A stretch of 64,000 nt of DNA from Escherichia coli (GTDB lineage: Bacteria; Pseudomonadota; Gammaproteobacteria; Enterobacterales; Enterobacteriaceae): assembly GCF_044647545.1 (NCBI RefSeq), contig NZ_CP172818.1. One strand, written 5' to 3'. A program made the translations under genes and the position numbers. The notes under the pieces were generated by a model, which saw only the letters and a program-made list of their open reading frames with translations, had not been told where the DNA came from and made no database searches. Of this stretch, positions 7,246 through 13,317 are shown piece by piece; positions within the stretch are counted from its first letter, which is position 1; each line of letters starts with the position of its first letter.

Positions 7246-8424
7246 TCAACGCGCCACCCACCCGAGGGTGCGCTGCGCCAGCACATCGCGTGCTGGGGTG
7301 AATAATTCCATTGCCATCAGCCCGATGTTGCGCCCGACAACCAGCGGCCCCCAACGGTTGGCAAAAAGATGTACAAGGCTGTCCGTGACGCCGATGGTTG
7401 CTTCGCGATCGCGCTGTCGACGCTGCTGATAACGGCACAATACGCCGTAATCACCCATGTCTTCTCCGCGCTCCTGCGCCTGAGTCAGGGTTTCCGCAAG
7501 GCTCATGACATCTCGCATACCGAGGTTGAACCCTTGCCCGGCAATCGGGTGCAGAGTTTGCGCCGCATTGCCCACCAGCACGGTACGATGGGTAATAGGT
7601 CTGGCGGCGCGGGTTAACGCCAGCGGATAAGCACTGCGTTTACCAGCGTGGGTAATTTTCCCAAGTCGCCAACCAAAGGCCGACTGGAGTTCACGGCAAA
7701 ACTTCTCGTCGCTCCAAGACAGTACCTCTTCGCGCCGTTCCAGTGGATGACACCAGACCAGCGAACAGCGTCCGTCAGACATCGGCAACATCGCCAGCGG
7801 GCCATATTGTGTAAAGCGTTCAAAAGCGCGCCCTTCATGCGCAACGGAAGTCGCAACGTTGGCAATCACAGCCAGTTGTTCGTAAGGCTCCTGCTGCCAG
7901 TCAACGCCGCACACGGTGGCTAACGCTGAATGGGTGCCATCAGCGGCTACCAGCACGCAGCCCGTCAGCGTCTCGCCACTCTCCAGCGTCACTTCAACGT
8001 GACTCTGAGTACGGGCAACGTTAGCCACGCGATCAGGACAATGCAGCGTTACGCCAGGTGCTTTGCGCAGCAATGCAAACAGCCGTTGCCCGACATTATG
8101 CAATTCGACAACCTGCCCCAGCGCCGCCAGTTGGTAATCTTCTGCGGCGAGGGTGACGAATCCGGCATGACCACGATCGCTGACATGCACGGTAGTGATG
8201 GCGGTTGCGCAATCAGCCAGAGATTGCCAGACGCCGATGCGCGCCAGTTGCTGACAGGTACCCGCCGCCAGCGCAATAGCCCGTCCATCAAAGCCCGGAT
8301 GAGCATGTGACTCTGGCGCAGTCGCTTCAATCAAATGTACCGGCAGCGCCCCGTGACTTAACCGGGAAATAGCCAGCGCCAGCGTCGCGCCCGCCATGCC
8401 GCCACCGACGATGATTACGCTCAT
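7246..8424 (-). CDS. ubiH: 2-octaprenyl-6-methoxyphenol hydroxylase
   Basis: 392-aa FAD monooxygenase, N-terminal IVGGGMAG; matches UbiH. Confidence 0.9.
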   Translation of the reverse strand: MSVIIVGGGMAGATLALAISRLSHGALPVHLIEATAPESHAHPGFDGRAIALAAGTCQQLARIGVWQSLADCATAITTVHVSDRGHAGFVTLAAEDYQLAALGQVVELHNVGQRLFALLRKAPGVTLHCPDRVANVARTQSHVEVTLESGETLTGCVLVAADGTHSALATVCGVDWQQEPYEQLAVIANVATSVAHEGRAFERFTQYGPLAMLPMSDGRCSLVWCHPLERREEVLSWSDEKFCRELQSAFGWRLGKITHAGKRSAYPLALTRAARPITHRTVLVGNAAQTLHPIAGQGFNLGMRDVMSLAETLTQAQERGEDMGDYGVLCRYQQRRQRDREATIGVTDSLVHLFANRWGPLVVGRNIGLMAMELFTPARDVLAQRTLGWVAR

Positions 8425-9746
8425 TGCTTTCTCGCAGCAGCCATCAACGCTTCGATTTCTTCCGGCTTTTTCACCACGCTGGCGGTGAGGTTTTCGTTGC
8501 CGGTTTCGGTAATCACAATGTCGTCTTCAATACGAATGCCGATACCGCGATATTGTTCTGGCACTTCTGCATCCGGCGCAATATACAGACCAGGCTCTAC
8601 GGTCAGTACCATCCCCGGTTCCAGAATACGCGAGCGATCCTGACCATAAACACCAACGTCATGAACATCCAGTCCTAACCAGTGGCTAAGGCCATGCATA
8701 AAGAAAGGACGATGGGCGTTCTGAGCGATCAGTTCATCAACATCACCTTTCAGGATGCCGAGTTTTACCAGGCCGCTAACCATGATGCGCACCACTTCAC
8801 CAGTGACTTCCTGCATGGAAGTTCCCGGACGATACAGCCGCAGGCTGGTTTCAAGAGACTCCAGCACAATGTCGTAGATTTCACGCTGGGCCAGGGTGAA
8901 TTTGCCGTTGACCGGGAAGGTGCGGGTAATATCGCCCGCGTAACCTTTGTATTCACAACCCGCGTCAATCAACACCAGGTCACCGTCGCGCAGTTCACTC
9001 TCGTTTTCGGTGTAGTGCAGAATGCAGCCATTTTCACCGCTGCCGACAATGGTGTTATAGGAAGGATAGCGCGCACCGTGGCGGTTAAATTCGTGGTGAA
9101 TTTCGCCTTCCAGGTGGTACTCGAACATTCCCGGACGGCATTTTTCCATCGCCCGGGTATGCGCCAGGGCGGTGATTTCCCCCGCGCGGCGAAGTACGGC
9201 AATCTCTTCTGGTGATTTGAACAGGCGCATTTCATGAACAATGGGACGCCAGTCGATCATCGTTGCCGGGGCAGTGAGATTCTGTCGCGAGCCTTTACGC
9301 AGCTTTTCCAGCGCGCTGTTCACGATTTCATCAGCATAGGTATATTCGCCCTGAGCGTGATAAACCACATCCAGACCATTAAGCAGTTGATAAAGTTGCT
9401 GATTGATTTCGCTGAATGCCAGTGCGCGGTCAACGCCCAGTTTCTCTGGCGCGGCATCCTGGCCTAAGCGACGACCAAACCAGATCTCTGCCGTCAGGTC
9501 GCGAACGCGGTTAAACAAAACGCTGTGGTTATGAGTGTCGTCGCTTTTAATCAGCACCAGCACCGCTTCCGGTTCGTTAAAGCCGGTGAAGTACCAGAAG
9601 TCACTGTTCTGACGATAGGGGTATTCGCTGTCGGCGCTACGTGTTACTTCTGGTGCAGCAAAAATCAGCGCGGCGCTGCCGGGTTGCATTTGCTCCACCA
9701 GGGCCTGACGGCGACGCTGAAACTCTTGCCGGGATATCTCACTCAT
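8421..9746 (-). CDS. pepP: Xaa-Pro aminopeptidase (aminopeptidase P)
   Basis: 441-aa product from MSEISRQEFQRRRQAL; M24 family; 4-bp overlap with ubiH. Confidence 0.95.
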   Translation of the reverse strand: MSEISRQEFQRRRQALVEQMQPGSAALIFAAPEVTRSADSEYPYRQNSDFWYFTGFNEPEAVLVLIKSDDTHNHSVLFNRVRDLTAEIWFGRRLGQDAAPEKLGVDRALAFSEINQQLYQLLNGLDVVYHAQGEYTYADEIVNSALEKLRKGSRQNLTAPATMIDWRPIVHEMRLFKSPEEIAVLRRAGEITALAHTRAMEKCRPGMFEYHLEGEIHHEFNRHGARYPSYNTIVGSGENGCILHYTENESELRDGDLVLIDAGCEYKGYAGDITRTFPVNGKFTLAQREIYDIVLESLETSLRLYRPGTSMQEVTGEVVRIMVSGLVKLGILKGDVDELIAQNAHRPFFMHGLSHWLGLDVHDVGVYGQDRSRILEPGMVLTVEPGLYIAPDAEVPEQYRGIGIRIEDDIVITETGNENLTASVVKKPEEIEALMAAARKQ

Positions 9747-9771
9747 AACACTCTCCTTACGTTTTTTGTTT

Positions 9772-10350
9772 TTAGTGTAGAGTCGGTTTTTGTACTTCTG
9801 GCGCGGTCGGTTGCGGATGAGTAAAGGTGTCGTGGCATAACAGCGCGGCAACACGAACGTATTCGATGATCTCTTCAAGCGACATTTCAAGCTCTTCCTG
9901 ATCTTCGTCTTCGTCGTAGCCCAGCTGCGCGATGTTACGCAGATCGTCGATGGCTTCACCGGTTTCTCCGGTCACTTTGTCCAGCTTCGGTTGCGTAACG
10001 CCAAGACCAAGCAGGAAGTGATTGACCCAACCTGCCAGCGCATCAGCCCGATCGAAAACGCTGACATCATCGCCATCAGGCAGATAAAGCTGAAAAAGGA
10101 AGCCGTCATCCTGCAGGGCATCGCTGGTGGCAGAGTGCATTTTACGCAGTGCCTGTGCCAGCTCATGACCGAAAGCCATGCCTTCGTTCGTCAGGTCGTG
10201 AAGTAGCGGCAGCCATGAGCTGTCATCGTTACCGCCACATATCATCCCACTGATTAAACCATGCATCTCAGCAGGGGTCAGACCCGTCCCTTGTTGGTTC
10301 AGATACTGGTTCATTTCGTTGTAACCAGGCATTTCGTTCTGTATAGACAT
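9772..10350 (-). CDS. ygfB: UPF0149 family protein YgfB
   Basis: 192-aa product [15 protein letters not shown]... Confidence 0.85.
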
Positions 10351-10451
10351 AAGCATTCGTCGTCAAAGGGAGGAATATTCATGATATGCTACCACTTTGG
10401 GCCCTGGTGGACCAGAAAAGGGCTTGTCTCTTCTCATCAGGGTAGCTATAG

Positions 10452-10847
<396 letters not shown>

Positions 10848-10888
10848 CACTTTTCGGTTTACTGTGGTAGAGTAACCGTGAAGACAAA

Positions 10889-11072
10889 ATTTCTCTGAGA
10901 TGTTCGCAAGCGGGCCAGTCCCCTGAGCCGATATTTCATACCACAAGAATGTGGCGCTCCGCGGTTGGTGAGCATGCTCGGTCCGTCCGAGAAGCCTTAA
11001 AACTGCGACGACACATTCACCTTGAACCAAGGGTTCAAGGGTTACAGCCTGCGGCGGCATCTCGGAGATTCC
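10889..11072 (+). ncRNA. ssrS: 6S RNA (RNA polymerase sigma70-holoenzyme regulator)
   Basis: Sequence atttctctgagatgttcgcaagcgggccagtcccctgagccgatatttcatacc...ggagattccc recognised as E. coli 6S RNA; -10-like tagagtaacc just upstream. Confidence 0.9.
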
Positions 11073-11146
11073 CTTCTTATCTGGCACCAGCCATGACGCA
11101 ACTACCCGAACTCCCACTGACATTATCCCGACAAGAAATCCGCAAA

Positions 11147-11695
11147 ATGATTCGGCAACGTCGTCGTACGTTAACGCCGGAACAACAGCAGGAAATGGGT
11201 CAACAAGCCGCTACCCGGATGATGACTTATCCCCCGGTGGTGATGGCACATACGGTCGCTGTATTCCTCTCTTTTGATGGCGAACTCGACACCCAGCCAC
11301 TCATAGAACAACTCTGGCGCGCCGGTAAGCGCGTATATCTTCCAGTTTTGCATCCCTTTAGTGCCGGTAATTTGCTGTTCCTGAATTACCATCCGCAAAG
11401 CGAACTGGTGATGAACAGGTTGAAGATCCATGAGCCAAAACTGGATGTGCGTGACGTGCTACCCCTTTCCCGATTAGACGTGTTGATCACACCGCTGGTC
11501 GCCTTTGATGAGTACGGTCAGCGCCTGGGAATGGGCGGTGGTTTTTATGATCGGACCTTACAAAACTGGCAGCACTATAAAATGCAACCGGTGGGTTATG
11601 CGCATGATTGTCAGTTGGTGGAAAAACTCCCCGTTGAAGAGTGGGATATCCCTCTTCCTGCGGTGGTTACACCGTCGAAAGTCTGGGAGTGGTAA
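11147..11695 (+). CDS. ygfA: 5-formyltetrahydrofolate cyclo-ligase
   Basis: 182-aa product MIRQRRRTLTPEQQQEMGQQAA...; lies immediately downstream of ssrS (ORF track shows a longer in-frame ORF overlapping 6S RNA). Confidence 0.85.
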   Translation: MIRQRRRTLTPEQQQEMGQQAATRMMTYPPVVMAHTVAVFLSFDGELDTQPLIEQLWRAGKRVYLPVLHPFSAGNLLFLNYHPQSELVMNRLKIHEPKLDVRDVLPLSRLDVLITPLVAFDEYGQRLGMGGGFYDRTLQNWQHYKMQPVGYAHDCQLVEKLPVEEWDIPLPAVVTPSKVWEW

Positions 11696-11754
11696 GGGCG
11701 ACACACCTGCATCGCCCTGATTGACATCGTTGATTCTTTAACCTAATTTAGTGA

Positions 11755-11897
11755 GTAAGGGTAAGGGAGGATGACTCCTCCCCTGAGACTGACTGTTAAT
11801 AAGCTGGGAAACTTATGAGTAACAGTACAATCAGTATGATGACAAGTCGCATCATAACCCTTCTCCTTCAAGCCCTCGCTTCGGTGAGGGCTTTACC
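11755..11897 (+). ncRNA. sibC: SibC antitoxin sRNA antisense to ibsC (boundaries approximate)
   Basis: Antisense to ibsC; ends at intrinsic terminator hairpin gccctcgc-ttcg-gtgagggc followed by ttt (11872-11894). Confidence 0.55.
11796..11855 (-). CDS. ibsC: Type I toxin IbsC (19-aa hydrophobic peptide)
   Basis: Minus-strand translation gives MMRLVIILIVLLLISFPAY*; too short for the ORF track. Confidence 0.8.
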   Translation of the reverse strand: MMRLVIILIVLLLISFPAY

Positions 11898-12030
11898 GTT
11901 ACAGCCCCATGCTGCCCTGCCATCGTAAATCCCCATTAAATAAACACAACGCATTGATCTGACTTTGATTTATTTTCTGGAGCAGACTCGCAAAGTAGAA
12001 TGCGCAATGCGGCAACGGTGTGGAGAAGGG

Positions 12031-12063
12031 ATAAAAAAATCGGGCAAGTCAGTGACCTGCCCG
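12031..12063 (-). terminator. Rho-independent terminator downstream of serA
   Basis: Hairpin cgggcaagtcagtgacctgcccg; on the minus strand it is followed by a T-run (plus-strand ataaaaaaat). Confidence 0.65.
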
Positions 12064-12084
12064 TTAATTTTCAGAGAAGGGGAA

Positions 12085-13317
12085 TTAGTACAGCAGACGG
12101 GCGCGAATGGTACCCGGAATAGCTTTCATTGCCTGCAGCGCTTTTTCGGCAACGTCTTCGTCGGCTTCAATATCAATAACTACATAACCCATCTGGGCGG
12201 AAGTTTGTAGATATTGCGCGGCGATGTTGACGCCCTGCTCGGCAAAAATTTTGTTGAGCGCAGTTAGCACGCCCGGACGGTTTTCGTGGATGTGCATCAG
12301 ACGACGCCCACCGTGCAGTGGCAGCGAGACTTCCGGGAAGTTCACCGCAGAGAGCGTTGAGCCATTGTCAGAATACTTGATCAATTTACCCGCAACTTCC
12401 AGGCCGATATTCTCCTGCGCTTCCTGAGTCGAACCGCCAATGTGTGGCGTCAGAAGGACGTTGTCGAATTCACACAGCGGAGAGGTAAATGGATCGCTAT
12501 TGGTTGCCGGTTCCGTCGGGAATACGTCGATTGCCGCCCCCGCCAGATGTTTGCTCGCCAGCGCGTCACACAGCGCCGGAATATCCACCACAGTACCGCG
12601 CGAAGCATTAATCAGCAGCGAGCCGGGCTTCATTAGTGAAATCTCTTTCGCACTCATCATATTTTTGGTGGACGGATTCTCTGGTACATGCAGACTCACC
12701 ACATCGCTCATATTCAGCAGGTCAGAAAGATGCTGTACCTGAGTGGCGTTGCCCAGCGGCAGTTTGTTTTCAATATCATAAAAGTAAACATACATTCCCA
12801 GCGATTCAGCCAGAATGCCCAATTGAGTACCAATATGACCATAGCCGATGATACCCAGCTTTTTGCCGCGCGCTTCAAAAGAACCCGCCGCCAGTTTGTT
12901 CCACACGCCACGGTGCGCTTTAGCATTGGCTTCCGGCACGCCGCGCAATAGCAGCAGCAGTTCGCCAATCACCAGCTCCGCAACAGAGCGCGTATTTGAG
13001 AACGGTGCGTTAAATACCGGGATACCGCGTTTTGCCGCCGCATCCAGATCAACCTGGTTTGTTCCGATACAGAAACAGCCAATAGCGACCAGTTTTTCTG
13101 CGGCGTTGATCACGTCTTCAGTCAGATGGGTACGGGATCGCAGGCCGATGAAGTGGGCATCGCGGATGGATTCTTTTAATTGTTCATCATCCAGCGCGCC
13201 TTTGTGAAATTCGATGTTGGTGTAACCCGCTGCACGAAGGCTTTCAAGCGCCTTTTGGTGCACGCCTTCTACCAGCAGAAACTTAATCTTGTCTTTCTCC
13301 AGCGATACCTTTGCCAT
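12085..13317 (-). CDS. serA: D-3-phosphoglycerate dehydrogenase
   Basis: 410-aa product MAKVSLEKDKIKFLLVEGVHQ... with C-terminal ACT domain. Confidence 0.95.
   Translation of the reverse strand: MAKVSLEKDKIKFLLVEGVHQKALESLRAAGYTNIEFHKGALDDEQLKESIRDAHFIGLRSRTHLTEDVINAAEKLVAIGCFCIGTNQVDLDAAAKRGIPVFNAPFSNTRSVAELVIGELLLLLRGVPEANAKAHRGVWNKLAAGSFEARGKKLGIIGYGHIGTQLGILAESLGMYVYFYDIENKLPLGNATQVQHLSDLLNMSDVVSLHVPENPSTKNMMSAKEISLMKPGSLLINASRGTVVDIPALCDALASKHLAGAAIDVFPTEPATNSDPFTSPLCEFDNVLLTPHIGGSTQEAQENIGLEVAGKLIKYSDNGSTLSAVNFPEVSLPLHGGRRLMHIHENRPGVLTALNKIFAEQGVNIAAQYLQTSAQMGYVVIDIEADEDVAEKALQAMKAIPGTIRARLLY

Follow-up and report, generated by a model that had tools for sequence, protein, structure and literature searches.

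Genes and features of the locus

The locus described here lies in a window of 64,000 nucleotides of Escherichia coli DNA, the window being the whole stretch that was analysed. On its plus strand, zapA (10518-10847), assigned from a Pfam ZapA match of 74.5 bits and from the PGAP and K-12 annotations, is followed by the 6S RNA gene, ssrS (10889-11072), and by fau, also called ygfA, which is predicted to encode a 5-formyltetrahydrofolate cyclo-ligase of 200 amino acids and most likely occupies 11093-11695. The minus strand carries pepP (8421-9746) and ygfB (9772-10350) to one side and ibsC (11796-11855) and serA (12085-13317) to the other, at the coordinates given by PGAP for an identical genome. 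The gene order zapA-ssrS-fau-ibsC-serA appears in both the PGAP and the K-12 annotations. For two of the minus-strand genes the longest open frame exceeds the annotated gene: that of pepP (8421-9959, 512 amino acids) reaches a GTG at 9959 and overlaps ygfB, and that of ygfB (9772-10356) begins two codons before the annotated start at 10350.

At its gathering thresholds Rfam gave two matches across all 64 kb of the window, one to 6S and one to SIB_RNA; a search for tRNA and tmRNA genes found none there. The SIB_RNA match (11721-11871, plus strand, 136.5 bits) corresponds to the SibC antitoxin RNA and lies opposite the 19-amino acid ORF of the IbsC toxin. By K-12 coordinates sibC would extend from about 11757 to 11897; PGAP annotates ibsC, and not sibC, on the identical genome. 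Of 16 differences from K-12 in the 1.7-kb stretch around the locus, 6 fall in sibC, among them three consecutive bases (11805-11807) that replace Ser with Pro at residue 17 of IbsC. E. albertii (L017) and Citrobacter werkmanii (L003) likewise have SIB_RNA after fau.

Of 5426 complete E. coli genomes, megablast located the segment 10400-12100 in 5425, and many E. coli chromosomes carry it with 100% identity; one complete genome had no match. The search gave 6059 places in the 5425 genomes, with two places in some genomes and one place on a plasmid, and the extra places may be Sib paralogues. Published work or current annotation already covers the locus, including the alternative start of fau discussed below. 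As textbook material, the ssrS-fau pair carries little weight as a discovery.

The 6S RNA gene

The segment 10889-11072 is ssrS, the ordinary and well-studied 6S RNA gene of E. coli. The Rfam model RF00013 (6S/SsrS), for which the gathering threshold is 46.4 bits, matched the plus strand at exactly these coordinates with 139.8 bits (E = 2.2e-28), and the match takes in the full model, positions 1-187 of 187. The original prediction had placed the gene here from the letters alone and had proposed an Rfam search and a comparison with K-12 coordinates as checks; both bear it out. The K-12-annotated gene, 183 nt and equivalent to 10889-11071, is the same as the window sequence at every base (183/183), with ssrS ending at 3056165 and fau starting at 3056241 in the K-12 annotation. 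The 3' end differs by one base between sources, Rfam and PGAP giving 184 nt and the K-12 annotation 183 nt. We considered whether the match might be a paralogue or a pseudogene and rejected this, given identity to K-12, a single copy and a full-length match to the model.

The predicted fold of the segment is unusually stable, with a minimum free energy of -80.5 kcal/mol and z = -5.62; none of 200 shuffled sequences was as stable. The minimum free energy and centroid structures both show the expected rod, in which a long closing stem leads through an open central region to a terminal stem, and the structure line of the covariance model is concordant with it. Nucleotide 44 of the RNA is a U (10932), the published start point of the product RNA (pRNA), for which lengths of 13-20 nt are reported (PMC9670815). 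The corresponding template, nt 25-44 of the RNA, occupies 10913-10932, and a transcript read from U44, computed as the reverse complement, is predicted to be 5'-AUCGGCUCAGGGGACUGGCC.

Binding to the sigma70 RNA polymerase holoenzyme and accumulation in stationary phase have been established for the identical K-12 6S RNA (PMC3299989, PMC9670815). The RNA of the window would accordingly be expected to act as a rod whose central bubble mimics an open promoter and to sequester the sigma70 holoenzyme in stationary phase. Release would come when the polymerase copies the short product RNA, beginning opposite U44.

Promoter-like sites upstream of ssrS

Two promoter-like sites precede the gene. The proximal one (P1-like, 10844-10873, plus strand) consists of ATGACA, an 18-nt spacer and TG-TAGAGT, an extended -10 element, and was recovered by the promoter scan with 9 of 12 matches plus the TG. 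The distal one (P2-like, 10629-10657, plus strand), TTGCAA and TAGAGT separated by 17 nt, was read from the sequence; its 8 of 12 matches are under the threshold of the scan. The -10 hexamer is identical in the two sites. The stop codon of zapA (10845-10847) falls inside the proximal -35 element (10844-10849), and all of the distal site is zapA coding sequence.

Transcription from the P1-like site would be expected to begin at G10880, position -9 relative to the mature 6S 5' end, and from the P2-like site at A10665, position -224. Kim and Lee (2004) reportedly mapped the ssrS start sites to these positions. In our reading tandem promoters probably drive ssrS, P1 immediately before the gene and P2 within zapA, and the resulting precursors are trimmed at both ends. 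Published work describes tandem ssrS promoters, the proximal dependent on sigma70 and the distal on sigma70/sigmaS, and 6S precursors of 194 nt (the short form) and 404 nt (PMC10406553, PMC12152304).

Conservation of the 6S-fau neighbourhood

The product of the co-oriented ORF ending at 11695 matches Pfam PF01812 (5-FTHF cyclo-ligase) with 160.8 bits against a cut-off of 27 bits, over profile positions 1-186 of 186 and residues 61-242 of the 248-amino acid ORF. It also matches four solved structures of the MTHFS family (E = 7e-23 to 5.5e-16). By these sequence matches the gene is fau/ygfA, directly downstream of ssrS and in the same orientation, as had been proposed, and both PGAP and the K-12 annotation agree. 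The enzyme would recycle 5-formyl-THF, an inhibitory folate by-product; an E. coli ygfA deletant accumulates this compound (PMC3223725).

The arrangement was compared across species by scanning one genome per species with a pattern for the 6S core, which gave at least 120 loci. All 20 loci sampled from these were confirmed as 6S by Rfam, with 93-140 bits. Seven of the at least 120 have too little flanking sequence to judge the presence of fau and stand outside the 113 that are testable. Among the matches listed, fau lies less than 400 nt downstream and on the same strand in 99 of these 113, in Enterobacterales, Vibrio, Pseudomonas and others. In the loci that were compared manually, Rfam placed the 3' end of 6S 30-33 nt beyond the last base of the search pattern, so gap estimates assume the pattern end plus 31 nt. 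On this footing 1-272 nt (median 41) separate the end of 6S from the candidate fau ATG among the matches listed; in E. coli the gap is 20 nt.

The exceptions among the matches listed are of two kinds. Five loci of the Idiomarina group (L008, L046, L052, L068 and L094) have fau at a distance of 1.6-2.5 kb downstream; in L052 an ORF of 522 amino acids on the opposite strand (772-2340) is inserted between the two genes. Nine loci, each with more than 800 nt of sequence after 6S, show no fau there: three from Pseudoalteromonas (L026, L057, L069), one from Acinetobacter (L076) and five others (L058, L085, L087, L118, L120).

Co-transcription and termination

These exceptions are what could be expected if ssrS and fau were merely adjacent, each transcribed independently and without functional coupling, and the description of the wider gene array, in which FAU1 is not strictly required (PMC7641849), points the same way. 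Against this reading stand the neighbourhood kept in 99 of the 113 loci and the layout of the locus itself. The two genes lie on the same strand with a gap of 20 nt (74 nt by the K-12 start of fau), and a scan of 10400-12100 found no site resembling an intrinsic terminator or a promoter between 11072 and 11147. Furthermore, a dicistronic transcript of ssrS and ygfA has been reported (PMC2848244, PMC3299989, PMC7641849). We consider mere adjacency highly improbable, and favour the bicistronic ssrS-ygfA transcript that the original prediction had assumed.

The scan did find one terminator-like site on the plus strand inside fau (11522-11537). It was treated as a chance match, since the number of sites found (2) is close to that expected from shuffled sequence (1.7).

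The 74 nt that follow 6S (11073-11146), made up of the 20-nt spacer (11073-11092) plus the first 18 codons of fau, are rich in C (36%) and poor in G (14%), a C/G ratio of 2.7, and the region 11060-11200 is unstructured, with a fold z of +0.43. This composition is rut-like and suggests that 11073-11146 may be a loading site for Rho; it fits the published Rho-dependent termination within ygfA (PMC3299989). In the resulting scheme transcription, meeting no intrinsic terminator after 6S, would continue into fau. Some transcripts would be ended by Rho early in fau and then be trimmed back to mature 6S, and the remainder would read through and serve as mRNA for Fau. The present analysis itself shows what the 6S RNA is, where it lies and how it folds, what Fau is and how the two genes are arranged, and it supplies the evidence on the start codon and the finding that no intrinsic terminator separates the genes; for co-transcription, processing, Rho termination and the enzyme function of Fau the scheme relies on the literature.

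The start codon of fau

Three in-frame ATGs have to be weighed as the start of fau. The first, at 10949-10951, opens the longest frame (10949-11695, 248 amino acids), which appears in the ORF list and, if it were the true coding sequence, would overlap the 3' two-thirds of the 6S gene. Its length is what speaks for it. Homology is absent from its first 48 residues, with the Pfam match beginning only at residue 61, and the region in question encodes a highly structured, abundant RNA. Among the matches listed, an in-frame stop codon blocks any comparable extension into 6S in 91 of the 99 6S-fau loci. Neither PGAP nor the K-12 annotation uses this ATG. We reject the 248-amino acid ORF as a real coding sequence and assign it next to no probability, in agreement with the earlier caution that the frame overlaps the RNA gene and that 10949 should not be taken as the start. 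More generally, mechanical tracks of longest ORFs can run into RNA genes.

The second and third candidates are ATG 11093, which gives a protein of 200 amino acids, and ATG 11147 (11147-11149), the codon of Met19 in that protein, which gives 182 amino acids. The latter is the start in the curated K-12 reference, NC_000913.3, where fau is annotated at 3056241-3056789. The codon is present in the window and in frame, and both starts are possibly in use. UniProt presumably also keeps the 182-amino acid form. With this start an untranslated spacer of 74-75 nt would follow 6S, and the same model was implicit in the original prediction, which gave the spacing of ssrS and ygfA as about 75 nt.

Several lines of evidence argue for 11093 instead. 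In the PGAP annotation of an identical genome, fau starts at 11093 (WP_000192751.1), 20 nt past ssrS. Position 1 of the PF01812 profile aligns at nt 11129, residue 61 of the long ORF and six codons before 11147, and all four strong alignments to solved structures start at residues 12-15 of the 200-amino acid form, upstream of Met19. Starting at 11147 would remove R13 and R17, which lie inside the Pfam profile and the structure-aligned regions; the N-terminal basic motif to which they belong, R/K-x-x-[LI]-R, is present in Fau with the 11093 start and absent from the 182-amino acid K-12 model.

The comparison across gammaproteobacteria points in the same direction. Among the matches listed, 84 of the 99 6S-fau loci have a non-start codon at the position of Met19, such as CTA, CTG, CTC, CAG, CTT, TTA, GTT or ACC. 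This holds even in Citrobacter, Enterobacter and Kosakonia, with 80-86% protein identity. Among the matches listed, Arg occupies the R17 position in 99 of 99 loci; at the R13 position 92 loci have Arg and 3 have Lys (95 of 99). Every one of the 99 loci listed has a start codon after 6S and before the R13 equivalent, an ATG in 93 of them.

Experimental data from K-12 agree. Tetracycline-inhibited ribosome profiling (TetRP) lists "ECK2907 ygfA ATG -54" in category "1. new site", and gives a 200-amino acid "alt-N'(new)" ygfA product whose sequence starts ATGACGCAACTACCAGAACTC (PMC4909307). Within fau codons 1-18 the sole difference between K-12 and the window is at 11107 (C/A), a synonymous third position in this frame. 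The N-terminal peptide expected of the 11093 form is MTQLPELPLTLSR (or TQLPE...).

No Shine-Dalgarno match of 4 nt or more was found within 20 nt upstream of any of the three candidate ATGs, and sequence context therefore does not discriminate between 11093 and 11147. Low-level dual initiation at the two codons may occur. Nevertheless, we consider that fau most likely starts at 11093, with a gap of 20 nt rather than about 75, and a start at 11147 appears very improbable. The K-12 reference start is probably 18 codons short and loses two essentially invariant arginines, a point of practical weight when E. coli Fau is cloned or modelled on the basis of the reference. With the 11093 start, moreover, the reported Rho termination "within ygfA" would fall in translated sequence rather than in a leader. 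Taken together, an ssrS gene with tandem promoters, read-through into fau partitioned by Rho and a fau start at 11093 form a reading in which we have high confidence.

A possible switch between 6S and Fau mRNA

The corrected start places most of 11073-11146 in translated sequence, so initiation at 11093 might compete with Rho. The fau ATG is 20 nt from the 6S closing stem and lacks a Shine-Dalgarno sequence, and the rut-like stretch consists largely of fau codons 1-18; this geometry makes a switch possible. A ribosome initiating at 11093 would mask the putative Rho loading site, so that read-through to give Fau mRNA would be favoured. Without such initiation Rho would terminate transcription and the transcript would be trimmed to mature 6S. 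The partition of the ssrS transcript between 6S regulator and Fau mRNA would then be set by the capacity for translation, an idea that we put forward as speculative and rather unlikely.

In 9 of the 99 loci among the matches listed (L064, L073, L092, L121, L047, L037, L114, L078 and L034, from Vibrio, other gammaproteobacteria and MAGs) the candidate fau ATG follows the estimated 3' end of 6S at a distance of 1-5 nt. With so short a gap, an initiating ribosome would have to sit on the 6S closing stem or melt it. Folding and maturation of 6S and translation of fau may thus be mutually exclusive on one transcript.

Comparison with known systems

The closest known system is K-12 itself. Its ssrS (b2911, RF00013) has the same flanking genes, the same two promoter-like sites and the same U44 pRNA template as the window, and the 6S RNA shows no sequence difference. 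Its fau/ygfA (b2912, NP_417387.3) is the same gene in the same position. Over the 603-nt frame the two differ by 5 substitutions and 2 amino acids, T26A and M164T in the numbering of the 200-amino acid form; the K-12 annotation, in contrast to PGAP with its 200-amino acid form, sets the start 54 nt further downstream (182 amino acids).

No structure of E. coli Fau was found among the solved structures matched. The four MTHFS structures, 2jcb (B. anthracis), 1ydm (B. subtilis YqgN), 1sou and 3hxt (human), can be aligned over nearly the whole of Fau and are distant from it, with bit scores of 62-85. In the human structure 3hxt, A9-K-R-S-L-R14 aligns with S12-R-Q-E-I-R17 of E. coli Fau, the N-terminal basic motif. 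The N-terminal basic residues of MTHFS may have a role in nucleotide binding. A literature search on the role of these residues (Lys10/Arg14) returned nothing relevant, the "Arg14" matches in one MTHFS paper being to Arg145.

A conserved proteobacterial array, ZapB-ZapA-SsrS-(FAU1)-EVE with a divergent YgfB-PepP-UbiH-UbiI, has been described by Bell et al. (2020, PMC7641849). The window likewise shows a divergent arrangement, with ygfB and pepP on the minus strand facing away from zapA-ssrS-fau. It differs from the array in having no EVE-domain gene after fau, as the same paper states for E. coli K-12; in the window the sibC/ibsC toxin-antitoxin pair, followed by serA, stands in its place.
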